Shown: positions 940 to 57,004 of the stretch, one piece after another
Layout: every line of letters begins with the position of its first letter
Numbering within the stretch: the first letter of the stretch is position 1
Source of the DNA: a virus
IMG/VR virus record: IMGVR_UViG_3300047497_000008
Location: 1 to 57,004 of that record
Reading direction: 5' to 3' (one strand)
Length of the DNA: 57,004 bases
Made by a program: the position numbers and the translations under genes
Notes under the pieces: generated by a model
Database searches by the model: none
The model's input: the letters and a program-made list of their open reading frames with translations, nothing else
Told to the model about the DNA's origin: nothing

Positions 940-1221
940 ATGGAAGCCGAGGTTATACCATTGCCGGGCTGGTTGGCAACAATACCGCCCATCGAGCGAG
1001 AGCTTTACTATAACAAGTTCATACTGAATGTTGCCGCGTTGTACGTGAGTCCTGAAATGAGTCTCAACGCGCTTGCCGACAAGCTGGAAATCTCGCCACC
1101 AGCGCTCCACCATCAAATGTCGCGGACGGGCGGCATCTCGGAGCGGTGGGTGATGAGGATAAATCGGCTCGTGGGATCGAAGATCCTGCCGATCGCAAAG
1201 ATAAACCCGCGCTTCCGTTGA
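940..1221 (+). CDS. small HTH-type DNA-binding protein (putative regulator)
   Basis: 93-aa ORF with an AAGGAG RBS. The segment MSLNALADKLEISPPALHHQMSRTGG looks like a helix-turn-helix. Confidence 0.6.
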   Translation: MEAEVIPLPGWLATIPPIERELYYNKFILNVAALYVSPEMSLNALADKLEISPPALHHQMSRTGGISERWVMRINRLVGSKILPIAKINPRFR

Positions 1222-1251: not shown

Positions 1252-3771
1252 ATGGCAGTACCGGGGGAAAGCGCCTTCATGGCGCTCTACGCACTCGACG
1301 CCGTAGAAAACGGGTACGAAATCGTACCGATAAAGCTGGACTCCAAGGCTCCAGTGTTTGCAGAGTGGCAAAAAGTACCAAGTAATAAGAAGACGGTGCA
1401 AAACTGGATACCGCAATACGGGCGAAACGGTTTTGGCATCCGAACAAAACTCACTCCAGGCGTAGATATAGACTGTCTTGACGCCGATCTGGTCGAGCAA
1501 ATGGTCGATTTCGTGCAATGCGAAGTCGGATTCGGCCCTGTCCGCGTTGGAAAAGCGCCAAAAACCCTTCTCGTCTACCGATCGTCGGTCCCGTTCAAGA
1601 AGGTGTCGAGCAAGGTTTGGGTTGATGAGTGGTTACAGGAAAACAAGGTTGAAATTCTCGGCGACGGGCAGCAATTTGTCGCTTACGGCATTCACCCCGG
1701 CACGAAAGCGCCCTATCGATGGATCGGCCGCGACACGCCTCTAGTAACGGCGGCTGGGAAGCTCTGTGAGATCACACAAGAGCAAGCGCGAGCGATCTGC
1801 GCCGAGTTTGACCGGCTGGCCGAGCTGAAAGGCTGGGAGCCGAAGCGAAACACGTCGCCGCAGCTCACGAACGGCCACCTGCGCGATCCCGACGACGTGT
1901 TCTTGAGCGATACGCCGATCGCCGATATCTCGTCAGAACAGCTTAGGGCGAAACTGTTCTCGATCCCGAATGATCCGATGGAGGGTGAACAGGATTACGA
2001 TACTTGGACGAACATCGGTATGGCGTTGCACCACCAATTCGACGGCGCCGACGAAGGATACGATCTTTGGGTTGAGTGGTCGGAACAATCGAGCAAGCAC
2101 GAAATCGGGCAGAACGAATACAAGTGGCCGTCGTTCAAGCATGACGAGAGCCGGGCGCCGATCACGGCGCGGTACATCATAAAACTGGCCGGCGAGTTTG
2201 AAGCCGAAGAGATCCGCGAACAGAAAGCCTCGATCGAGCAACTACTGGCAAACGCGTTGAACGCGCAGCACATAAAAGAGCTATGCGCCAAAGTCAAAGA
2301 AGTGAAGTTGGACGACTTCGACAGATCCGAGCTGCAAAAGCGAATCCAAAAACGCTACAAGGATCTGACCGGCCACGTTCTCACGAGCGCCGAAGTCCGC
2401 AAGCTCACGCGATACGAACAGCCGGGCGACTTGCTCCGGGCAAGTCACAAATGGCTTGAGGATTGGGTTTTCATTTCGGGTGAAGGTAGGTTCCAGCAGC
2501 TCAACGGCGACCCGTTGGCATTGAGCCGAGAAGCGTTCAATCTCGCGTTCGCGCATAAGCTGTTGACGCCGACTGAAATCGCCGAAGGCCAGTCCGTGCC
2601 GAGCGTGGAGCCATCCACCTTCGCGATAACGAATTACGGAATCCCAGTCGTCAACGCGATGATCTATGCACCCGATCAGGACCGGGTTTTCACGCGTGAC
2701 GGCGTGCAGTACGGCAACACCTATTCGGAAGCTGGCCGGGCCGTCATACCGGAACTAAGTTCCGCACGCGACCGTGAGAACGTCAAGCTGGTCGAGAAGC
2801 ATTTCGAGCATCTTATCGAAGACGAACTAGAGCGCGAAATGTTCAAATCGTGGATTGCTTGGGTCGTTCGCAAACCCGGCAACCGCGTGAAATGGGCTGT
2901 CCTGTTGCAAGGCGCCAAGGGTATCGGCAAGACGACTCTTTTCAACTTGTTCGAGGCGATCCTTGGCGAGTCCAATTGTCAGGCCGTCAGCAACGATGAC
3001 CTGAAGGGCGTCTATAACGAATGGGCGATGAAGTCGCTGGTGTTCGTGGAGGAAGTGAAGGCGCAAGGGTCACAGTACGACGTGTTGAGCCGTCTCCAGA
3101 TATTCATTACTAATGACAAGATCCCAATCCGGCGTATGCGTATTGCCCCGTTCAATGTTCGGAATTATGCGAGCTATCTGTTGACGACAAATCGTGTGAA
3201 CGCGTTACCGTTAAGTGAGGACGAGAATCGTTACTACGTCATCTTCTCACGGTGGCAGGAATCCAACGCCGAAGAGTACGCCGCGTGGGCGGCCGAGAAT
3301 CCCAAATACTTCGATCGACTTCGCCGGGCGATCAGCGAATCTCCGGGCGCGTTGCTCAAGTGGTTCTCAAATATGAAACTGCACCCGAAGTTCAATCCGC
3401 ACGGTCGCGCGATCAAGTCGGAAGGTCGCGATACGATGGTGAGTCTGGAGACAGGCGAGAAGTCGTCGGCGCTGGCGGCATTGCTCGCGGAAGGCGAACC
3501 CGGCATGAACGCGGAGCTGATAAGTTCCACGAATCTACGCCAGCTTATCGGCGAAAACCTGCTCGAGATCCCGTTGACGGGCGGCGGCTGGCGCAACACT
3601 TTGATCGACGCGGGGCTCCGGCCACTAGGTCAAGTGCGGCTGGAGGGCCGATTTGGACCCCAAGAAACCTACTGGAGTCGCACCCCAAAACGCTTCAAAA
3701 ACCTCGATCTAAGCCCGAATTTGGACCTGATGCGAAAGACCCTCGGGATAAAGTCGCCGTCAAGTAGTTAA
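1252..3771 (+). CDS. bifunctional primase-polymerase / D5-P4-type replicative helicase
   Basis: 839 aa. AEP/prim-pol-like motifs: GVDIDCLD, VEILGDGQQFVAYGIHPGT. PriCT-like segment: YDTWTNIGMALHH...GYDLWVEWS. P-loop: LLQGAKGIGKTTLFN. Walker B-like: LVFVEEV. Confidence 0.9.
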   Translation: MAVPGESAFMALYALDAVENGYEIVPIKLDSKAPVFAEWQKVPSNKKTVQNWIPQYGRNGFGIRTKLTPGVDIDCLDADLVEQMVDFVQCEVGFGPVRVGKAPKTLLVYRSSVPFKKVSSKVWVDEWLQENKVEILGDGQQFVAYGIHPGTKAPYRWIGRDTPLVTAAGKLCEITQEQARAICAEFDRLAELKGWEPKRNTSPQLTNGHLRDPDDVFLSDTPIADISSEQLRAKLFSIPNDPMEGEQDYDTWTNIGMALHHQFDGADEGYDLWVEWSEQSSKHEIGQNEYKWPSFKHDESRAPITARYIIKLAGEFEAEEIREQKASIEQLLANALNAQHIKELCAKVKEVKLDDFDRSELQKRIQKRYKDLTGHVLTSAEVRKLTRYEQPGDLLRASHKWLEDWVFISGEGRFQQLNGDPLALSREAFNLAFAHKLLTPTEIAEGQSVPSVEPSTFAITNYGIPVVNAMIYAPDQDRVFTRDGVQYGNTYSEAGRAVIPELSSARDRENVKLVEKHFEHLIEDELEREMFKSWIAWVVRKPGNRVKWAVLLQGAKGIGKTTLFNLFEAILGESNCQAVSNDDLKGVYNEWAMKSLVFVEEVKAQGSQYDVLSRLQIFITNDKIPIRRMRIAPFNVRNYASYLLTTNRVNALPLSEDENRYYVIFSRWQESNAEEYAAWAAENPKYFDRLRRAISESPGALLKWFSNMKLHPKFNPHGRAIKSEGRDTMVSLETGEKSSALAALLAEGEPGMNAELISSTNLRQLIGENLLEIPLTGGGWRNTLIDAGLRPLGQVRLEGRFGPQETYWSRTPKRFKNLDLSPNLDLMRKTLGIKSPSSS
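2751..2763. repeat. GGAACTAAGTTCC palindrome
   Basis: Inside the primase-helicase gene, read as PELSS. Confidence 0.95.
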
Positions 3772-3813
3772 TAAAAATCAAAAAATTTTAGACAGATTGC
3801 AACACAAAACCGA

Positions 3814-4144
3814 CCTAAGTACCTAAGTACACCTAAGTACCTAAGCACGGCCGATCGAGCTGCTGGACCCGTGCTTAAGCGTGCTTACCCCCCGTGCTTA
3901 CGGTAACGCGTTGATATATAAGGCGTACTTAGCTCTTTTGCCGTACTTAGGTCCCTGGCTTCATTCTATATATGATGTAGTAACGAATCATGTATCGGCC
4001 ACCGGGTCGAAAAAGATCTCTTATATGTATATGTATTTTACCTAAGCACAGCTAAGTACCTAAGTACCATATGATAAATCGTTAGGGTTTGCCTCACTTT
4101 TTGGTGCTTGGCTCCCGTGCTTAGGTGTTCTCGGACCTAAGAAC
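3814..4144. repeat. origin-like iteron cluster (CCTAAG[T/C]AC / GT[A/G]CTTAGG) flanking an AT-rich segment
   Basis: Direct copies at 3814, 3822, 3832, 3840, 4041, 4052, 4059 and 4136. Inverted copies at 3871, 3881, 3894, 3925, 3943, 4105 and 4117. The cluster lies immediately downstream of the primase-helicase gene. Confidence 0.75.
3961..4040. other. AT-rich putative DNA-unwinding segment inside the iteron cluster
   Basis: tcattctatatatgatgtagtaacgaatcatgtat ... cttatatgtatatgtatttta stands out in an otherwise GC-rich genome. Confidence 0.55.
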
Positions 4145-4492
4145 AGCCCGGAGAACGCGTTTTCAGGAAAAAATTTTCACCGAAACGACGGCCGAAGAGC
4201 CGGATCGGTCGATCTCTGGTCCAGGATGACGCGTTTGCCACGAAAAATTGGACCTGTCTGGCCGTTTTCGCAAAATTTCCCCCACCGGGCTCAGCGCCCC
4301 TCGCCCACCGCGCCAGGACCCTAGGAGGGACCCAAACACCCTTCAACCCCTTGATTTTGCACGCTTTTCCGATGTTTTCCCGCTCTAGGGATGGGCGATC
4401 TACCGCACCTAAAATCCGCGCGTTCCCGCTCAAAACCTGAGGCAATCCCTCACTTTTCGCCGATCCAGCCGCGTTCCTGTCACCTGCATCTA

Positions 4493-4505
4493 GGAACTCA
4501 GTTCC
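4493..4505. repeat. GGAACTCAGTTCC variant palindrome (centre C)
   Basis: First unit of the 30-bp tandem repeat. Confidence 0.9.
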
Positions 4506-4522
4506 ACCGTGCGGCCGATCTC

Positions 4523-4535
4523 GGAACTCAGTTCC
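4523..4535. repeat. GGAACTCAGTTCC variant palindrome (centre C)
   Basis: Second unit of the 30-bp tandem repeat. Confidence 0.9.
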
Positions 4536-4888
4536 ACCGTGCGGCCGATCTCGGAACCACATCCGAGACGTAGCCAAACATCGCCGCTAATGCCGATTTG
4601 CCGGCCGCCTGGTGGGGGAAAAGGGATAGGCCGCTAGGGTAGTACCAGAATGGGGTCAACATCGCTGTACGGCCGTTAAAACGGCACTAGCGTCGATTTC
4701 AACCTGCGAGACGTGTTCATCCCACACTCATACAACCGATAACGCGTCTGTCCGACCAAAGTGGCCGATTTGCGACTATTGCACGTTTGTATAACATCGT
4801 GAGATATCAACGCGTTAAGGCGTAAATTAGTACACTGGCTTACTACCTTCTCACACCTGGTACGCGGTGCAGCGTCGTTTCGGACAAC

Positions 4889-4920
4889 AAAAAATCCCGA
4901 TAGATCTCTCTATCGGGATT
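4889..4920 (-). terminator. rho-independent terminator (minus strand) after gene 4953..5159
   Basis: 12-bp stem aatcccgataga / tctatcgggatt with loop tctc. On the minus-strand transcript it is followed by a U6 run (A-run 4889-4894 on plus). Confidence 0.7.
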
Positions 4921-4928
4921 GTCGAGGT

Positions 4929-4941
4929 GGAACTTAGTTCC
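4929..4941. repeat. GGAACTTAGTTCC palindrome
   Basis: Lies between the stop of 4953..5159 and its terminator. Confidence 0.95.
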
Positions 4942-4952
4942 GATGGTCGCTG

Positions 4953-5159
4953 CTATGGGCGACACTCTCGCATGATATCATCCGAACGCCAGTCACACTC
5001 GGGAAGGGCTTGATACCGAGCTACCGACGCCGCAATCGATCGCTGTTGATCGATATGGCGATGATAGCTGTCAGCGTAATCCGTACCGACGAAAAGCAGC
5101 ATGAGAACGACGGTGGCGATTCCTAGCGTTCCGATGATCGCCGCGCTTGGGCTTTCCAT
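4953..5159 (-). CDS. small membrane protein
   Basis: Hydrophobic helix AAIIGTLGIATVVLMLLFVG. ATG 5159 has GGGAGAG upstream. The track ORF starts at GTG 5168. Confidence 0.5.
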   Translation of the reverse strand: MESPSAAIIGTLGIATVVLMLLFVGTDYADSYHRHIDQQRSIAASVARYQALPECDWRSDDIMRECRP

Positions 5160-5161
5160 GA

Positions 5162-5377
5162 TCAGCACTCTCCCATGACGCGGCCGTTTTCACCCCATAC
5201 GAACCACTTGTTACCGTTGGACGTCACGATGTGGAAGCCTTCCACCCACCAGTCGCTACCGCGTTCCGCGCTTATGATTCGTGTTCCCGACAACCGCCAT
5301 CTGGCCTCCATCGCTAAGACATAATCTATAGCGGCGTCATGAGACGGGACGAACAATTCGGCGACATACTCAGACAT
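5162..5377 (-). CDS. hypothetical protein
   Basis: 71-aa ORF with AGGAG 7 nt upstream of ATG 5377. Confidence 0.6.
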   Translation of the reverse strand: MSEYVAELFVPSHDAAIDYVLAMEARWRLSGTRIISAERGSDWWVEGFHIVTSNGNKWFVWGENGRVMGEC

Positions 5378-5441
5378 TCTAGGCTCCTATCAGGTTTGAA
5401 ACGCGGTATCGGCCGCGACGTTTTCCATAAAACGTAAGAGC

Positions 5442-5470
5442 GTTTTAATTCGCCGATTCCGATCCGTCAA
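5442..5470 (-). promoter_or_regulatory. putative promoter (minus strand) TTGACG-N17-TAAAAC for gene 5162..5377
   Basis: Minus-strand reading gives TTGACG (5470-5465), a 17-nt spacer and TAAAAC (5447-5442), just downstream of the 5504-5535 terminator. Confidence 0.3.
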
Positions 5471-5503
5471 TACGTGAAAACGAGTTTTTTGCGAAATCGG
5501 CAC

Positions 5504-5535
5504 AAAAAATCCCGATAGATCGCTCTATCGGGATT
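5504..5535 (-). terminator. rho-independent terminator (minus strand) after gene 5567..6007
   Basis: Same 12-bp stem as at 4893-4920 with loop tcgc, followed by a U6 run on the minus strand. It belongs to a duplicated roughly 58-bp cassette that also contains the palindrome. Confidence 0.7.
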
Positions 5536-5542
5536 CTCACTC

Positions 5543-5555
5543 GGAACTTAGTTCC
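5543..5555. repeat. GGAACTTAGTTCC palindrome (17-bp TCGGAACTTAGTTCCGA)
   Basis: Lies between the stop of 5567..6007 and its terminator. Confidence 0.95.
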
Positions 5556-5566
5556 GAACGACGCGG

Positions 5567-6007
5567 CTAGGACGCGACTCCTGACGCTAGGCTGTTAAGC
5601 CGTAGCAGGCCCAGATCATGCTGTAACAGCGTTTTAAGGTAGCGCTGTAGAGCGCGCCGCAACACTGGTCGGCATGGTCCCGACACCTTTACCGAGATCC
5701 CGTCGAATAACGGCTTTACCGTCGCGAAATTCGACGCGTGGAATCCCGCTTTCTCGTCTCGGAAATAGAGCGCAATCGTGATCCGAGACTCGTCGGAATG
5801 CTTTAGATCGATCGTTCCGCGAATCGCTTTAGTCGTTAGATCCGGCTCGGGATAGATCACATGATTCAGATAATCCGCTTCGAGTCTGTGAATCTCAGAT
5901 CTCATGGCGTTTGCTCGTTCAGGATAATTGTTATCCCGTAGCGTACGGTACGCAATAACGAGTTTATGTATCTGCCGTATTAGCGTGATATCTTTCGACG
6001 CGTACAT
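5567..6007 (-). CDS. hypothetical protein
   Basis: 146-aa ORF with AAGGAG 9 nt upstream of ATG 6007. Confidence 0.65.
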   Translation of the reverse strand: MYASKDITLIRQIHKLVIAYRTLRDNNYPERANAMRSEIHRLEADYLNHVIYPEPDLTTKAIRGTIDLKHSDESRITIALYFRDEKAGFHASNFATVKPLFDGISVKVSGPCRPVLRRALQRYLKTLLQHDLGLLRLNSLASGVAS

Positions 6008-13847: not shown

Positions 13848-14258
13848 ATGCACTTCGATGTATTGCGGGAAGCCAACGCCGCCCGTGTCGGGCTGTTCAA
13901 GAATGCCAAAGGCGAGACGCAACACTCAGGCGTTGGTGCCGGCGACGAATGGACGCCGAACGATTGGTTTACGGCCATGGCCGGCGAGCTTGGTGAAGCT
14001 GGGAACGTCCTCAAGAAAATCAGGCGCGGCGACTTCACGATGGACGAAGCTCGTCATAAGGTCGCGCAAGAACTGGCCGACGTGGTTATCTATCTCGATA
14101 TGCTGGCCCACGCGTGCGGAATCAATCTCGGGCAAGCGGTGATGGATACATTTAACGCCAAGAGTCGGGAAAAGAGTTTGCCTATCCTCATTCGTGAACG
14201 CGGCCTCCATCACGGGCGGCATCAGTCGTATTGCGTGATAGATACGAACAAACCATGA
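13848..14258 (+). CDS. MazG-like nucleoside triphosphate pyrophosphohydrolase
   Basis: AGGAGG RBS. Motifs AMAGELGEAGNVLKKIRRGD and ELADVVIYLDMLAHACGINL. Confidence 0.8.
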   Translation: MHFDVLREANAARVGLFKNAKGETQHSGVGAGDEWTPNDWFTAMAGELGEAGNVLKKIRRGDFTMDEARHKVAQELADVVIYLDMLAHACGINLGQAVMDTFNAKSREKSLPILIRERGLHHGRHQSYCVIDTNKP

Positions 14259-14857
14259 GCTTCGATTTCCTGCTGCACGATGTTGTCGGCTACGCCGATT
14301 TCGAGGATGACGACGGAGTTCCAGCCATCAAACAGTTTCGCACCCTCCTAACTCGGCGCTGGGGTGGATCGGACGGCAGGAATTTCGTGCTTTGGGTGAT
14401 GCTCAACCCGTCAACGGCAACCGGCGTTCGGAACGACCCGACGCTGAAAGCAATCATAGAAATGACGCATAACATGGGATACAACGCGCTGCGCGTCGTC
14501 AATCTCGTGACCTACAGAACGTCAATACCGAGTCAGCTCTACGCATGGCTGGATAAGCAGAAAGAACCTCAAGGCGCGTATCTCGACAAGTGCGCGAATC
14601 TGATATGGTTCCAGATTCAACTCGCAAGCGAAGTTATCCTGGCCCACGGGCAACACGTTCTTGTGAAACGCCGCGAACCGTGGCACCGCGTACTGTTGCG
14701 AACGCAAGCCCAGCTCGTGTACAAGTTCACCGTTGACGCCGGCCACGTTCCGTTGTGCGTCGGCGTCAATCGAGACGGCTCGCCGCGTCATCCGCTGGCG
14801 CGCGGTGGGCATCGCGTACCGCGTGACGTGATCCCGCAACCGTTCACAATGAGGTAA
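14255..14857 (+). CDS. DUF1643-family protein
   Basis: ATGA overlap with the upstream stop. RRWGG...FVLWVMLNPSTATGVRNDPTLK...GYNALRVVNLVTYR matches the DUF1643 signature as I remember it. Confidence 0.7.
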   Translation: MSFDFLLHDVVGYADFEDDDGVPAIKQFRTLLTRRWGGSDGRNFVLWVMLNPSTATGVRNDPTLKAIIEMTHNMGYNALRVVNLVTYRTSIPSQLYAWLDKQKEPQGAYLDKCANLIWFQIQLASEVILAHGQHVLVKRREPWHRVLLRTQAQLVYKFTVDAGHVPLCVGVNRDGSPRHPLARGGHRVPRDVIPQPFTMR

Positions 14858-14860
14858 GGC

Positions 14861-15058
14861 ATGAGTCGGTATCTAGGAGCACGTACCAAGTTCACGTTGA
14901 GAATCCCGCTTGAGCTGCATGTTACGCTTACCAGATCCGCCACGTGGCTTGGCGTACCGCTCAACGATTACATCATAAAGCGTTTACGTGAGGTAGAAGG
15001 AACATATGTCAGTGCCGAAATCACCGAGACCCCGCAAACCGCGCGCCAAAAAATCTAA
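14861..15058 (+). CDS. Arc/MetJ-type ribbon-helix-helix DNA-binding protein
   Basis: FTLRIPLELHVTLTRSATWLGVPLNDYIIKRL reads as a beta strand plus two helices. The stop lies 3 nt before the 19-bp palindrome 15061-15079. Confidence 0.65.
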   Translation: MSRYLGARTKFTLRIPLELHVTLTRSATWLGVPLNDYIIKRLREVEGTYVSAEITETPQTARQKI

Positions 15059-15063
15059 CACTC

Positions 15064-15076
15064 GGAACTTAGTTCC
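15064..15076. repeat. GGAACTTAGTTCC palindrome (19-bp CTCGGAACTTAGTTCCGAG, 15061-15079)
   Basis: The 19-bp form starts 3 nt after the Arc-like gene stop. The core lies 8 nt upstream of ATG 15084. Confidence 0.95.
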
Positions 15077-15083
15077 GAGACAC

Positions 15084-15290
15084 ATGAGGTTCCCATTCGA
15101 GCGTGGTTTCCGGGCCGCGTTACTGCTGACGGCGAGCAAGTGTGCCGCTTCTATCCCGTGCTACAATCGCGTGACGGAGCGGTGGGCTTTCGATGGAGCG
15201 CGAGACGCGTTCGATCGGTATTTGCAACGTGAGTTCCGCGCATTCGCGGAGCGACTGAGAGGATCGCCCGATGGCAAAACCACTGCTTGA
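15084..15290 (+). CDS. hypothetical protein
   Basis: ATG 15084 lies 8 nt after the palindrome and the RBS is weak. The track ORF 15006..15290 overlaps the Arc-like gene. Confidence 0.45.
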   Translation: MRFPFERGFRAALLLTASKCAASIPCYNRVTERWAFDGARDAFDRYLQREFRAFAERLRGSPDGKTTA

Positions 15291-15681
15291 CGAGTTGTTC
15301 CCGGGAGACGCATACGACGCGGCTTTCGAGGCTCTGCGAGACGCACTACTCACCGACATGCGCGCTACGCCGAACGCGGAGGAGGCCGACGCACTGCGAA
15401 AAGAAGCGATGGCGACCATAATCGAGTGCCTGACTCAAATACAACCGGGCACCGACCACTCGCTAGTGACGTGCATCGCCCGATCATGTATAGGTCACGG
15501 CGCACCGGCAGCGCTGTTGCCGGAGGTATTCATGCTACTGGCCGGAGCCGCATGCGAAGGCGCCGGCGAGAGCAAGGCGGGCATGTACAGCACGGCTATG
15601 TACGCGCTCAACCTCGGCTATGAGCGCTCCGCCGCCAGCGTCATCAACATCGTTTCGTGCGAACGTATTAAGGGGGAGTAG
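15271..15681 (+). CDS. hypothetical protein
   Basis: 136-aa ORF with GAGAGGA 7 nt upstream. Confidence 0.6.
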   Translation: MAKPLLDELFPGDAYDAAFEALRDALLTDMRATPNAEEADALRKEAMATIIECLTQIQPGTDHSLVTCIARSCIGHGAPAALLPEVFMLLAGAACEGAGESKAGMYSTAMYALNLGYERSAASVINIVSCERIKGE

Positions 15682-15685
15682 TACC

Positions 15686-16069
15686 ATGCCGAAAGACGAT
15701 ATGAACAAGCCGACGTATCTGGTGGCGTTTCGCACGTTTCCACGCGCTCTTGCTGCCGTCGATCGTCACATGCGAGCACATGCAATCAAGCACGGCGACA
15801 ATCCGCGAGAATTTCTCAATGTTCAAGACGGATACCGTCGATACAGTGAAGCGCTGTTGCGGCACGTCGGCCGAATCGGCGAAGGCTCCGCGCTCGCTCA
15901 TGCGGTCGCGGTTGCCGCCAACGCGTTGATCGCACTTGAGATTGCCCTGGAGCATGACACGTTGGAACCAAGTTCCGAGGCGCAACAGCTCACGCTCGAT
16001 CGTGCCGCGTTCCTCAAGGATCGATACGACGGCGTGCCGGGCGGCGATCACCCGAACGGAAAAATCTGA
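15686..16069 (+). CDS. helical NTP-diphosphohydrolase-like protein (DUF5664-type, tentative)
   Basis: AGGGGGAG RBS. AIKHGDNPREFLNV..YRRYSEALLRHVGRI..ALAHAVAVAANALIALE resembles the KYG..NW..RH..H pattern. Confidence 0.5.
   Translation: MPKDDMNKPTYLVAFRTFPRALAAVDRHMRAHAIKHGDNPREFLNVQDGYRRYSEALLRHVGRIGEGSALAHAVAVAANALIALEIALEHDTLEPSSEAQQLTLDRAAFLKDRYDGVPGGDHPNGKI
15964..15976. repeat. GGAACCAAGTTCC degenerate copy
   Basis: Inside gene 15686..16069. The 5-bp arms GGAAC/GTTCC are kept. Confidence 0.5.
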
Positions 16070-45542: not shown

Positions 45543-47617
45543 TATGCGAGTGCTTTTCCGAAAGCGGTGAAATCGAATTGCTGCGCGGGCTTACTGTATA
45601 ACTCTTTTTCAGGAGATACAACTAGAGAATTTTTATCCCAAGTTGCGGCCCAGCCGGGCGGATTTTCCCAATTGATCTGATCTGCTCGAATCAATTCTGA
45701 GAGACAAATGCCGATAGTATAGTAGCCGAGATCCCAGGCTTCGTTTCGAGTATGACTCGGGTTTTCCCAACCTTTCTCTGTGCGCGTCTCGGCGCACAAC
45801 TCGCGGAACACTTCATCTGGCACCCAAGCCGGAACGCGGAACATGCCTTTACCCGGCTCGGTACAATCCAAGCGGCCGGCAAGCGTATCCTTCAAAAGAT
45901 TCGAATTTATCAGCATGACCGGCACATCGCCGCGAGCGGGCGCCATGCGATCGCGCTGATTGGAATCAGGGTAGACGATCCGCGTGCGAGGCGCGCGATC
46001 GGAAGGCTCACCCTTCACGAGCATGAATCTCCCGTGCTTGTTCTCGCGGCGCAGCTTGCGCCAGTAGTCATAGGCGTTTGTCGTGACGCCGTGCCGACCG
46101 CCCGAGTCACAGACGGTAAGTTTGATCTTCATGCGGCGCCCGCTGTTATCGGCGAGCGGATACGTTTTGTTGATAACTTGTTCCTCTATGAGATCCCAAT
46201 CGTCCAAATATGTGTGAGGTTTCACCCAAAGCCGCTCGCCGTCTTCGTCGGTGCGCTTGGATTTGCGTATATCAAACCGATCTATCAGCACCGTGTCGAA
46301 CTGTATCCCAGGCAGGATTCCCGTGATCTGTACGACAAACTGATTTGCTTGAACGTCGATCGCCGCGACAAGCATTCTAACGTCGTCCGGTACGACGTGC
46401 TCCGGCAAGTCTTCCGCACGGTTCTTGAGCGCTTCCGGCACGCGCACAGAGTCGTTTCGCTTTGGTTTGTACGGCTCGCCTAGATCGTTATTGTAGAACT
46501 TCTTTAGGGAGTCCTCGCTGCCGGTGCGCTCGTAATCCGTCATAGCGTCGAGATAGAGCGAAACGAGATTAGCCCACGACACAAAACTCGCCGCAACCCC
46601 ATTCAACCAGTAGCTCAATATCCGCGTACGCGGACCCTCACCGACAACTCGCCCTTTCTCGATACGCTGGCCGTCCGCGAGCCATCTGCCGAAAATGTTC
46701 ATCTCGCGCCGATCCGAATACTCGATACGGCACCCGTTTATGGGACACTCCATGTAGACAGATTGCCCGATACTCAAGTTACCGTGCAGCTTTTCGTTAA
46801 AACGCAAATGCGAAAAGTCGCCCATGAAATACTGGCCGCAATGCGGGCACGGCCAATACCATCGACGCCGATCGCCGCGATTGTACAAACCGATTATACC
46901 ATCGCACGGGGGCGCCTCGTGCGGCGTTTTCTTGATCCATTTCTGCGGATCTTTGATCGGCCGCGACGGCGACGACTCCGCAACGCACATGGCGAACGAT
47001 CCGAACGTCGTAGTTCGCTTGGACGCTAAATCGTATGGCGCACCTTCGCCGTCGATATCGTCGGGCATCCGATCGTAATCCGTCATGAAAACATGCGGCA
47101 CCGGCCGACCGGCAAGCTGACTGATTGCCGGCCAACTCAACGTGAGAATGTTTCCCGAGCTGTAGTGCTTGTCAAACTTGTTATCGGCATCCTTGGACTT
47201 CTTGAGCCGGTTTCCGACTTCCGTGGAATCGCGATGCAGTCGATCGACGCGACGATTGGAGAAGTCGCGAGCCGTCGTGTTCGTCGGGCAAAACAGGAGA
47301 ATGTCGAGCGGATCGACAATGATGCTATGTAGTAACCCGTTTACGATAAGGCTGTCCGTCTTGCCGACCTGAGCGCCGCCCACGAATATCAAACCATTGT
47401 GATGCGGAGATATGCACCCATCCATGGGTTCTACCATGTACGGCGTTTCGTCATTCGACCACGGCCCGATAAAACCGCCGGGATTGTTCACCTTACGGTA
47501 TTTCGTAGCGGCTTCGCTTACCGACAACCGTTCTGGCGGCGTCAGTATTTCGGCAAGATCGAGAACGATTTCTTTGAGTGTATTATAAATCCGCGTATCC
47601 GTCTTCTTCGTCAGCAT
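45542..47617 (-). CDS. terL: terminase large subunit, lambda gpA-type
   Basis: Walker A LIFVGGAQVGKTD and CPHCGQYF. The track ORF extends to 47791. ATG 47617 has AAGG upstream and gives a plausible 35-nt overlap with the TerS candidate. Confidence 0.9.
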   Translation of the reverse strand: MLTKKTDTRIYNTLKEIVLDLAEILTPPERLSVSEAATKYRKVNNPGGFIGPWSNDETPYMVEPMDGCISPHHNGLIFVGGAQVGKTDSLIVNGLLHSIIVDPLDILLFCPTNTTARDFSNRRVDRLHRDSTEVGNRLKKSKDADNKFDKHYSSGNILTLSWPAISQLAGRPVPHVFMTDYDRMPDDIDGEGAPYDLASKRTTTFGSFAMCVAESSPSRPIKDPQKWIKKTPHEAPPCDGIIGLYNRGDRRRWYWPCPHCGQYFMGDFSHLRFNEKLHGNLSIGQSVYMECPINGCRIEYSDRREMNIFGRWLADGQRIEKGRVVGEGPRTRILSYWLNGVAASFVSWANLVSLYLDAMTDYERTGSEDSLKKFYNNDLGEPYKPKRNDSVRVPEALKNRAEDLPEHVVPDDVRMLVAAIDVQANQFVVQITGILPGIQFDTVLIDRFDIRKSKRTDEDGERLWVKPHTYLDDWDLIEEQVINKTYPLADNSGRRMKIKLTVCDSGGRHGVTTNAYDYWRKLRRENKHGRFMLVKGEPSDRAPRTRIVYPDSNQRDRMAPARGDVPVMLINSNLLKDTLAGRLDCTEPGKGMFRVPAWVPDEVFRELCAETRTEKGWENPSHTRNEAWDLGYYTIGICLSELIRADQINWENPPGWAATWDKNSLVVSPEKELYSKPAQQFDFTAFGKALA

Positions 47618-48389
47618 CCGCCGCGCCTTTACCTTGGCGGCGCTGGCGGAACGTTGCGCCATCCGCGGAGTCGGCGCTGTCGTCAAAGTTTTCTGGACGA
47701 TCTTCGGAAGATTCTTTCCCCGCGTCCGAACCGGCTCGATCGGCGGCGTTGACTTTTGCGATTTCTGTGAGGTCCGTTGCAAGGCTTTCACGAATCACCT
47801 TCATGGTATTGTCGATCAAACGCTTGATGAGATTCCGTTGCTCGTCCGTAAGCCCTATCTCGCGCTCAACCTGATCGCCGAGAAGCAGGAGACTCAGACG
47901 CAGCGTTTTGAAGACTTCACCGATCATAATCTGCACGTCGGCCGTGCGCCACAAATCACCGGCCAGTTCTTCATACCGAAGTTGAGCGTGCATCCCGTTC
48001 CAGTATTCCTTGAGCATATACGGGTTGAGATCTTGGGGCGACATCTTTTTGATGTACTCGCCAATATCGACTTTCGGCTGCACGAGATATTCGGCCACGT
48101 CTCGAATGGCGTACAGGTGCGTATTCATGTGAACGCCGGTAGGCGTGCAATGGGATATCGCTTCCTTGACTCGGTTGCTCGCCACCTTGAATATATCGCG
48201 CAGCTCTGTAAGTGACGCGCCGACGTACATCACGCGTCTTTCCGATTGCATTTCTTGTCGCGTCACGGGCGCCGTCGTCTTCGACACCGCCGGAACTAAG
48301 TTCCGAGTGTCTTTCGGCTTCGGAGCCGGCGTTGTTTTCTTGCTGGGTGGCCGGCCGACCGGACGTTTCGGCAGTATTGGTGCCATCAT
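47583..48389 (-). CDS. terminase small subunit candidate
   Basis: 268 aa directly upstream of TerL. Basic N-terminus RPVGRPPSKK and acidic C-terminus. Confidence 0.5.
   Translation of the reverse strand: MMAPILPKRPVGRPPSKKTTPAPKPKDTRNLVPAVSKTTAPVTRQEMQSERRVMYVGASLTELRDIFKVASNRVKEAISHCTPTGVHMNTHLYAIRDVAEYLVQPKVDIGEYIKKMSPQDLNPYMLKEYWNGMHAQLRYEELAGDLWRTADVQIMIGEVFKTLRLSLLLLGDQVEREIGLTDEQRNLIKRLIDNTMKVIRESLATDLTEIAKVNAADRAGSDAGKESSEDRPENFDDSADSADGATFRQRRQGKGAADADEEDGYADL
48292..48304. repeat. GGAACTAAGTTCC palindrome (+GAGTGT flank)
   Basis: N-terminal region of the TerS candidate, read as RNLVP. Confidence 0.95.
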
Positions 48390-56361: not shown

Positions 56362-56909
56362 GGCTTCGACAGCTCTCTGGCGACTTCCCGAAGAAAAGTG
56401 CGCCAAGACGACGCCGATCCGCCAGGAGGCGAGTTGAGGAGACACTTCAAGTTGTGCGGTTCAGAGAAACCACAAGAAGCGCACACGTCCGCGATTAGTT
56501 TACGGGCGCACTCTTCACCTTTCATCGCTTTAAGCTCCACGGCGGCAGACATAACTTGCTGCGCCGTGGGGGAGGGAGGGCCATCGGCGATCTTAGCCCG
56601 CTGGCGCCTAGCGCGCTTTATGTTCTTGGCGAGTGCCGCGTCAAAAACCGTGTTCTCGGCGAGTGCCGCGTCAAAAACCGTGCGTTGTGAGTTTTGCATC
56701 AGAACGCGCATCGCGTGAATGTCCGTAAAAAACCCATAAACGGGTTTCAGCGCGTGGTGGATTAGCGGGAGCGCGTTGCACGGAAGCGGTTCGCCGTGCG
56801 TATCCGCTGCGAACTCATCCGCGAGACGGATCAAACCACCAAACCATTGCTCGAAAGCAAATTCTTCGGCGTCTTTGGAACTTAGTTCCGGGGTGTCATT
56901 CTCTGCCAC
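56358..56909 (-). CDS. hypothetical early protein with an internal 10-aa duplication
   Basis: 183-aa ORF. TVFDAALAEN/TVFDAALAKN is encoded by a 30-bp tandem repeat. Codons 7-11 (PELSS) are the palindrome. Confidence 0.6.
   Translation of the reverse strand: MAENDTPELSSKDAEEFAFEQWFGGLIRLADEFAADTHGEPLPCNALPLIHHALKPVYGFFTDIHAMRVLMQNSQRTVFDAALAENTVFDAALAKNIKRARRQRAKIADGPPSPTAQQVMSAAVELKAMKGEECARKLIADVCASCGFSEPHNLKCLLNSPPGGSASSWRTFLREVARELSKP
56628..56684. repeat. 30-bp tandem repeat (1.9 units) inside gene 56358..56909
   Basis: ggcgagtgccgcgtcaaaaaccgtgttctc is followed by ggcgagtgccgcgtcaaaaaccgtgcg. Confidence 0.9.
56877..56889. repeat. GGAACTTAGTTCC palindrome (also at the window start, bases 1-12)
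   Basis: Codons 7-11 (PELSS) of gene 56358..56909. Confidence 0.95.
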
Positions 56910-57004
56910 GTTGGATTTCCTATTTGAGCGAGCGCGCGATGGATCGATAGTGTTCGGCCACTGCGGCGCAGAACTCGTGCCTCGGAAGACCTGTCGAAAA
57001 GAAA
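56878..57004. repeat. Terminal overlap copy 2, identical to 1-127
   Basis: Same 127 nt as the window start. The unique genome length is therefore 56,877 bp. Confidence 0.95.

Follow-up and report, generated by a model that had tools for sequence, protein, structure and literature searches.

Genomic context of the repeat region

The region 3772-4144 lies immediately downstream of a primase-helicase gene and between converging genes, with the primase unit on one side and leftward transcription units on the other. The window, that is the whole stretch of 57,004 bp analysed here, carries its first 127 bases again at its end, which marks it as a complete genome, assembled as a circle of 56,877 bp. 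Its gene content and gene order are of the Casjensviridae-like cos siphovirus type, with DNA polymerase I, an exonuclease, a SNF2-type helicase, a DUF1441 small terminase subunit (TerS), a lambda-like TerL, portal, protease and tail genes on the minus strand; a small gene followed by that of the 839-residue primase is divergent from this DNA polymerase/head/tail block. Judged from its sequence, this is a Casjensviridae-like cos phage, present in the window in full, and it has AH2, BcepNazgul, Salvo and Chi as relatives. Burkholderia phage AH2 has a primase with 38% identity to that of the window, and the primases of BcepNazgul, Salvo/Sano and SS2019XI reach 33-36% (38-41% across the AH2 and metagenomic primases); since the closest metagenomic homologue is just 41% identical, the lineage of the window is poorly sampled. 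A related-locus search of IMG/VR with the primase returned one weak locus and nothing else. The features of the locus are collected in Table 1.

Table 1. Genes, repeats and other features at and around the candidate origin.
Feature	Position	Strand	Basis or remark
Small Cro-like protein gene, just upstream of the primase gene	940-1221		
Primase-helicase gene, 839 aa, putative initiator	1252-3771	+	Pfam, PHROG phrog_1156
C-terminal 145 aa of the primase-helicase, candidate iteron reader	3334-3768	+	AlphaFold2 model
AT-rich spacer, 27% GC, directly 3' of the stop codon	3772-3812	.	Composition
Four forward iterons, CCTAAGTAC three times and CCTAAGCAC	3814-3848	+	Start-to-start spacing 8, 10 and 8 bp
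Three degenerate reverse iterons, GTGCTTAAG, GTGCTTACC and GTGCTTACG	3871-3902	-	
Two reverse iterons, GTACTTAGC and GTACTTAGG	3925-3951	-	Directed away from the AT-rich centre
Central AT-rich segment, candidate DNA-unwinding element	3961-4040	.	Lowest-GC 120-bp window; block TCTCTTATATGTATATGTATTTTA kept in the nearest relative (L005)
Three forward iterons, CCTAAGCAC, GCTAAGTAC and CCTAAGTAC	4041-4067	+	Spacing 10 and 8 bp; opposite to the 3925-3951 pair
Two reverse iterons, GTGCTTGGC and GTGCTTAGG	4104-4125	-	
Last iteron, degenerate, CCTAAGAAC	4136-4144	+	
cos-like site GCTCAGCGCCCC	4289-4300	+	Single occurrence in the window; outside the iteron array
TerS gene, DUF1441-type	about 47583-48389	-	

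An Rfam search over 3500-6000 gave no match and a sigma-70 promoter scan of the region found no site. A 54-residue open reading frame at 3881-4045 has no family match and lies inside the repeats, and it was taken as non-coding. GC skew was considered as an origin marker and set aside, as it peaks near 4 kb, where the genes change strand, and is confounded by gene orientation.

The primase-helicase and its C-terminal domain

The gene ending at 3771 had been described from the sequence as a prim-pol/helicase gene directly before the repeats, and the domain assignments agree with this description. Pfam places a Prim-Pol domain at residues 14-163, PriCT_2 at 246-313 and a DUF5906/D5-like SF3 helicase at 552-658, all in the same protein, with an E-value of 1.5e-17 for DUF5906 and an additional weak VapE-like match. 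A family profile matched the NrS-1 primase-helicase (6k9c) over the helicase part with an E-value of 1e-21, and the pRN1 ORF904 structures (3m1m/1ro0) in the N-terminal region only, with an E-value of about 3e-5. PDB sequence searches with the primase-helicase returned no SaPI Rep chain.

The C-terminal 145 residues were modelled by AlphaFold2 with a pLDDT of 87 as helix, strand, helix, helix and beta-hairpin, an arrangement that is winged-helix-like. Foldseek matches of this domain in the PDB are weak, with best E-values of 0.03-0.1, but nearly all of the non-ribosomal matches are winged-helix DNA-binding domains, including Zur/Fur (Zur with a probability of 0.93), GntR, Cdt1, PadR and RTP; neither P4 alpha nor SaPI Rep was among the top 50 PDB fold matches. 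In BFVD the domain matched only the C-termini of homologous phage primases. The putative recognition helix differs with the iteron group, in an apparent correlation, and reads GGGWRNTLID in the window, GRAWSNMMHD in its nearest relative (L005) and T[KR]x[LI][NHQ]xxL[ST][DE] in the relatives whose iteron is AGGTCCGAA. The C-terminal domain is the candidate reader of the iterons.

The iteron array and the AT-rich centre

The region is a real, strongly non-random element that is conserved in the family. The octamer CTAAGYAC has ten exact matches in the 57-kb window and all ten fall within 3815-4124, against an expectation of 1.1 from shuffling, and a count of ten was reached in none of 100 shuffles. 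When up to one mismatch is allowed, CCTAAGYAC matches 19 times genome-wide, 13 of these inside 3814-4144 (331 bp), and at up to two mismatches the array comprises 15 distinct copies in both orientations, eight of them exact, five with one mismatch and two with two. The earlier count of at least 15 copies of CCTAAG[T/C]AC therefore holds for the loose consensus, in both orientations, but not as a strict count. The array is the top 7-mer and 8-mer cluster of the genome, the strongest cluster of short repeats, and its first iteron begins 43 bp past the primase-helicase stop codon. No second, crr-like iteron cluster was found anywhere in the genome by scans for CTAAGYAC, for CCTAAGYAC and for clustered k-mers.

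The 80-bp AT-rich stretch between the repeats was likewise confirmed. It contains 32.5% GC compared with 57.2% for the genome, and falls within the genome minimum, as the lowest-GC 120-bp window genome-wide is 3960-4079. It is flanked by minus-strand iterons starting at 3925 and 3943 and by plus-strand iterons starting at 4041, 4051 and 4059, and it is split by a GC island of 14 bp (3996-4009, 86% GC). The two lowest-GC 40-bp and 80-bp windows of the genome begin at 3763/3765 and 4010. The first forward block together with the reverse pair nearest the centre (3814-3848 and 3925-3951) makes an imperfect long inverted repeat or hairpin, and the blocks at 4041-4067 and 4104-4125 make a second inverted block able to form one, so that the inverted iteron blocks can be folded as two long imperfect hairpins flanking the AT-rich centre (z = -2.7 and -3.55). 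The sequence is thus compatible with both an iteron view and a stem-loop view of the region.

The same layout in relatives and beyond the family

An iteron array between the 3' end of the primase gene and cos, with a repeat unit of its own in each lineage, was found in seven of the eight relatives checked, namely AH2, BcepNazgul, a metagenomic relative of AH2 (L002), Salvo, SS2019XI, a Chi-like phage and L005. The iteron of AH2, L002 and BcepNazgul is AGGTCCGAA, of which 9-15 copies stand right after the primase stop codon, in both orientations and in inverted blocks around AT-rich stretches. The corresponding unit is AGGAGCCGAATA in L004, GGTACTGTCAC in Xylella phage Salvo, AGGTAACAG in the Chi-like phage FSL SP-030 and GTCCCGGAWA in Pseudomonas phage SS2019XI. 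In L005 an alignable AT-rich block (…TCTCTTATGTGTATATTGTTTTA) is followed by tandem CCTAGTAAC at 8-bp spacing, a slightly different repeat that sits where the window has CCTAAGYAC, in the counterpart of 4041-4067. The element is thus homologous across the family, with a repeat unit that varies by lineage, as would be expected of sites evolving in step with a specificity domain. The eighth relative, Sphingomonas phage Carli, has a weaker iteron/AT-rich region beside cos, 3.6 kb from the primase gene, with a minus-strand gene block in between.

Scans of IMG/VR and metagenomes for CTAAGTACCTAAGTAC gave chance or unrelated matches, none of them with a primase homologue among the matches listed. 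One contig (L116), considered as a relative with the same iteron, was discarded as its repeats are an unrelated AT-rich GTACTNNAGTAC array.

The layout also occurs outside the family. In the Vibrio phages LP.1 and 1.017.O, whose primase is 28% identical and whose downstream gene order is unlike that of the family of the window, iterons of the TATCCG / GTATCCGAA type surround AT-rich DNA directly 3' of the primase-helicase gene. Two small plasmids, V. vulnificus pMP1 and the 8.9-kb E. coli plasmid pRHB04-C06_4, encode helicase domains that are 26-32% identical and carry iteron arrays directly 3' of the gene; neither has an annotated terminase. The reading of the repeat region as origin-like, put forward in the preliminary description, draws its support from this comparison, in which the layout recurs in the family, in Vibrio phages and in small plasmids.

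The neighbouring cos site

The cos-like site, GCTCAGCGCCCC, lies 145 bp beyond the last iteron and about 475 bp from the farthest one. It agrees at 11 of 12 bases with the cohesive end of AH2, GCTCAGCGCCCT, with which the AH2 genome record starts and which was determined experimentally (PMC3483164). Genera share the flanks of cos over about 40 bp, and the conserved parts include an A-rich tract upstream, CCCGCC and GGAGGGACCC at about +38. This conservation of the cos surroundings, where the iterons are not conserved, fits a conserved terminase signal and a separate, fast-evolving initiator signal.

The closeness of cos gives rise to the main alternative to a replication origin, namely that the iterons are cosB-like sites for the small terminase subunit and position terminase at cos, alone or besides an origin role. 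A lambda-type cosB was taken to be a few TerS sites about 50-200 bp from cosN, on whichever side is packaged first. In every family member examined, cos has the array on its primase side, about 20-520 bp away, and in Carli the weak array stays with cos and not with the primase gene, so the link could be to cos rather than to the primase. AH2, L002 and BcepNazgul moreover carry two extra iterons about 190-370 bp beyond cos. In the genome of Chi the replication genes lie between cos and the terminase genes (PMC4342425); with the terminase genes displaced from cos in this way, a lambda-style cosB would be expected on the array side of cos. The 12-nt cohesive-end site next to the array, the short repeated sites on one side of it and the lambda-like head and terminase genes are further points of likeness to lambda cos. 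Covariation does not separate the two candidate readers, as the TerS proteins of AH2 and BcepNazgul are 49% identical and the C-terminal domains of the primase 38-41%, a similar degree of divergence.

The cosB of lambda has three R sites in about 120 bp. The 13-15 sites of the window are far more numerous, spread over 330 bp (400-500 bp in relatives) and placed around the most AT-rich DNA of the genome, which is unlike lambda cosB. In addition, the conserved cos flanks are the better candidate for a terminase signal, whereas the iterons differ by genus. The layout is also present in the two plasmids, for which no terminase is annotated, and in the Vibrio phages, whose downstream genes are different. 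In view of these differences, we consider a cosB function of the iterons unlikely. The same holds for a dual function, with the array as both origin and terminase recognition site, which would couple initiation to cos packaging across the Casjensviridae.

Other proteins and transcription termination

The position of the region between the converging primase and leftward units, and the capacity of the inverted iteron blocks to fold as long hairpins, could also be reconciled with another role, in which the repeats are sites for a different DNA-binding protein, either the Cro-like product of the small upstream gene or a partition/centromere-binding protein, and the inverted blocks serve chiefly to stop transcription from both directions. 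The primase gene always has a small gene before it, annotated as Cro in AH2 and, in Vibrio phage 1.017.O, as a protein with a DNA-binding domain; AH2 also encodes a ParB-like protein. No ParB-like domain was found among the subset of window ORFs screened, and two strong terminators of canonical form, at 4893-4920 and 5508-5535, are already available to the minus-strand transcripts. Transcription termination would furthermore leave the 15 phased copies, the extreme AT content and the small-plasmid layout unexplained, and we regard this alternative as improbable, more so than the terminase-binding one.

A candidate replication origin and its likeness to known replicons

The most likely reading of 3772-4144, which we hold to be probable, is that it is the replication origin of this Casjensviridae-like cos siphovirus, of the SaPI/P4/pRN1 type, and that it is read by the predicted winged-helix C-terminal domain of the initiator. 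The 839-residue Prim-Pol/PriCT_2/SF3-helicase protein encoded immediately upstream would be a self-loading initiator, whose winged-helix-like C-terminal domain would bind the 9-bp CCTAAGYAC iterons in their oppositely oriented blocks beside the most AT-rich segment. Helicase rings could then assemble on either side and melt the AT-rich centre, the Prim-Pol domain would prime, and the phage DNA polymerase I, a ssDNA-binding protein and a second helicase would take over. We infer that the C-terminal domain would read the iterons, that melting would take place in the AT-rich centre and that replication would start here.

Among known replicons, the origins of SaPIs have 6-12 iterons immediately downstream of rep, opposed to each other across an AT-rich centre, and the protein that reads them, through its C-terminal winged helix, is a self-loading SF3 helicase; in the PriRep protein of SaPI5, pri and rep are fused (PMC9371898). 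The window likewise has an SF3 helicase as putative initiator, fused to a primase as in SaPI5, with a predicted C-terminal winged helix and with iterons directly 3' of its ORF. The array flanks the lowest-GC DNA and has at least two opposed iterons on each side, thus matching the published description of a SaPI origin. The two differ in that neither sequence nor fold searches linked the primase-helicase to SaPI Rep, and in that the iterons of the window are 9 bp long and present in 13-15 copies, those of SaPIs 5-6 bp long and present in 6-12. The window is also not a satellite but a 57-kb cos phage of lytic type that encodes a DNA polymerase of its own, and its candidate origin adjoins cos. 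By this comparison the region would resemble a SaPI origin in its operation, but it is not assigned to the SaPI type, as homology between the initiators was not found.

A second likeness is to pRN1, where the only essential non-coding DNA besides the promoter is found just downstream of orf904, within 166 bp, and to the phages BIP-1/BPP-1, which have an ORF904-like protein layout with PriCT_2, plus a 3' stem-loop (PMC4234260). ORF904 shares with the primase-helicase of the window an AEP Prim-Pol, a helical/PriCT_2 domain, an SF3 helicase and, at the C-terminus, a winged helix, which in the window is a predicted one (PMC4234260, PMC2777425). Both loci have a small regulator gene upstream and a cis element, in the window a candidate one, just 3' of the gene, and the inverted blocks of the window can be folded as stem-loops. 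pRN1 and BIP-1 reportedly have one large stem-loop, with neither iterons nor an AT-rich origin, whereas the window has short iterons around an AT-rich centre, and its hairpins, made of inverted iterons, are in this respect unlike the published description of pRN1.

In phage P4, too, a single polypeptide, the alpha protein, joins a primase to an SF3 helicase and to a domain for origin binding, a winged helix at the C-terminus (PMC4234260, PMC2777425). This domain binds short repeats that stand in both orientations, as those of the window do. The primase domain of P4 alpha is of the DnaG/Toprim type (PMC2777425), whereas that of the window is an AEP Prim-Pol, and the C-terminal domain of the window has no fold match to the origin-binding domain of P4. 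The window has a single compact iteron cluster and no crr-like second one. P4, on the other hand, requires two separated cis elements, ori and crr. The "P4 alpha/ori-crr logic" invoked in the preliminary description is consequently apt in a loose sense, and the SaPI ori and pRN1 ORF904 are the closer parallels.

The layout is most likely an ordinary one, belonging to a kind of origin already known, in which a self-loading primase-helicase is served by an iteron origin adjacent to its 3' end, and no new mechanism is revealed by it. It does provide a concrete, testable origin for Chi/Nazgul-like phages (Casjensviridae), a family for which no description of an origin or of iterons was found in the literature searched. 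The comparison also yields a simple rule, namely that lineage-specific iterons come after the primase-helicase gene and before cos. With this rule, origins could be annotated in hundreds of related genomes, and the joint evolution of initiator and iteron could be followed.

A dispersed palindrome with a hexamer in common with the iteron

A second repeated element, dispersed over the genome, is a 13-15-bp palindrome of the form C-GGAACT-N-AGTTCC-G (CGGAACTNAGTTCCG), with 22 perfect 13-mers in the window against 0.06 expected at up to one mismatch and with A, T or C as the centre base, depending on the copy. CTAAGTTC, given earlier as the palindrome half-site, crosses the dyad centre of CGGAACTNAGTTCCG, and the half-site is in fact GGAACT. 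The hexamer CTAAGT is indeed common to iteron and palindrome, as had been noted. In simulation, a random 9-mer shares at least six contiguous bases, or 7 of 9 positions, with the palindrome in about 1.0-1.2% of cases, a comparison that was made post hoc.

The hexamer had led to the suggestion that the palindromes are related to origin recognition, the iterons and the CGGAACTNAGTTCCG palindromes being read by the same or a related protein and the palindromes acting as secondary loading or priming sites or as competitors of the origin. In its most definite form, a single winged-helix reader, the C-terminal domain of the primase-helicase or a relative of it, would recognize both the iterons and the 22 evenly spaced palindromes, hence their common quasi-palindromic core CTWAG; this would make the palindromes secondary sites of helicase loading or priming in a distributed, multi-site system of replication or priming. 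The spacing of the palindromes is more even than random (CV 0.59 compared with 0.94, P = 0.006), and two variant palindromes (GGAACTCAGTTCC) stand some 200 bp past cos, at about the position of the two extra iterons of AH2-type phages, although in Salvo, SS2019XI and the Chi-like phage the DNA beyond cos is free of iterons. The shared hexamer, or the agreement at 7 of 9 positions, is itself expected by chance at the level of about 1%, and it lies over the dyad centre, whose base varies, while the true half-site does not occur in the iteron. There are no palindromes in the iteron array and no iterons beside any palindrome, and AH2 has iterons but no over-represented or dispersed palindrome. Conversely, three IMG/VR contigs of 44-52% GC carry the palindrome (five copies in L064, three in L046 and two in L056) with neither an iteron cluster nor a protein detectably shared with the window. 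The terminase and portal of L064 are different ones, the only matches of L064 and L046 are to an unrelated tail-protein family, and no palindrome-reading protein common to the window and the three contigs was found in the parts of the contigs fetched. The proposed relationship between iterons and palindromes is thus unsupported, and a common reader, whether in the general or in the definite form, is in our view very improbable.

The palindromes are enriched at gene boundaries, which also speaks against a role in origin recognition and suggests one at the level of transcripts or as operators. Two of them stand directly before the twin minus-strand terminators.

Genome ends and the cos region

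The first 127 bp of the window are identical to the last 127 bp (56878-57004); the window is therefore a complete, circularly assembled genome of 56,877 bp, whose end-to-end junction falls within one copy of the dispersed palindrome. Inspection of the DNA around the cos-like site (see the table) revealed an A-rich tract 5' of cos that is kept in the different genera of the alignment. A second element, ~38 bp 3' of this site, is a GGAGGGACCC box, which is also found in SS2019XI and Carli. In the Sphingomonas phage Carli (L068/L071), nine small minus-strand genes lie between the stop codon of the primase gene and the repeat/AT-rich/cos region; this block places the origin-like region 3.6 kb from the primase gene, yet it still adjoins cos.

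Table. Features mapped beyond the candidate origin of the window.
Feature	Sequence	Position	Strand	Remarks
cos-like site	GCTCAGCGCCCC	4289-4300		flanks ~4260-4340; single occurrence; 11 of 12 bases as in the experimentally determined AH2 cohesive end
30-bp tandem repeat	GGAACTCAGTTCCACCGTGCGGCCGATCTC	4493-4552		two copies and a partial third; ~200 bp beyond cos
Two strong, near-identical intrinsic terminators	AATCCCGATAGA-N4-TCTATCGGGATT, then T run	4893-4920, 5508-5535	minus	

The Chi-like Salmonella phage FSL SP-030 (L070) contains an internal GGTCAGCGCCC motif, at ~190-204 of its record, that resembles the cos of Salvo and AH2, together with a Chi-type end, GCTCTGCGCACC (record positions 1-13), ~190 bp away. 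The iteron scan also matched a very AT-rich element dense in GTACTNNAGTAC-type repeats in L116 (OKRZ01001934.1, 2780-3680); this element is unrelated, and a primase homologue is absent nearby.

The dispersed palindrome

The palindrome CGGAACTNAGTTCCG occurs at 22 sites genome-wide in the window (391, 2751, 4493, 4523, 4929, 5543, 9306 and onwards to 56877), with a spacing that is evener than chance (CV of 0.59 vs 0.94, P ~0.006), and its copies are over-represented between genes and at gene boundaries. Some of them (9306, 29487) are embedded in longer palindromes of the form ATGCGCG...CGCGCAT, and the tandem repeat beyond cos contains a variant with C at the centre. Reading along the minus strand, a copy (4929, 5543) directly precedes each of the two terminators, which enclose a pair of small ORFs on that strand (4953-5168 and 5162-5377). 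The dispersed palindrome could possibly act in the manner of an operator or as an RNA hairpin.

The palindrome, as GGAACTWAGTTCC, is also present in the phage contigs L064 (IMGVR_UViG_3300032046_001821), L046 and L056, of 44-52% GC, in 5, 3 and 2 copies, respectively, that lie within 13-15 kb and are mostly intergenic; the terminase and portal of L064 differ from those of the window. Its presence in these three contigs suggests that the reader of the palindrome is widely shared or host-encoded. In the nearest relative, the 3.8-kb contig L005, a palindrome with one mismatch, GGAAGTTAGTTCC, is found at 3726-3738, ~40 bp 5' of the cos-like end.

A possible nucleotide-metabolism gene cluster

Elsewhere in the window, a plus-strand gene cluster (13848-16069) encodes MazG-like, DUF1643 and dATP/dGTP diphosphohydrolase N-terminal (PF18909) domains, and may serve to manipulate nucleotide pools or have a connection with base modification.
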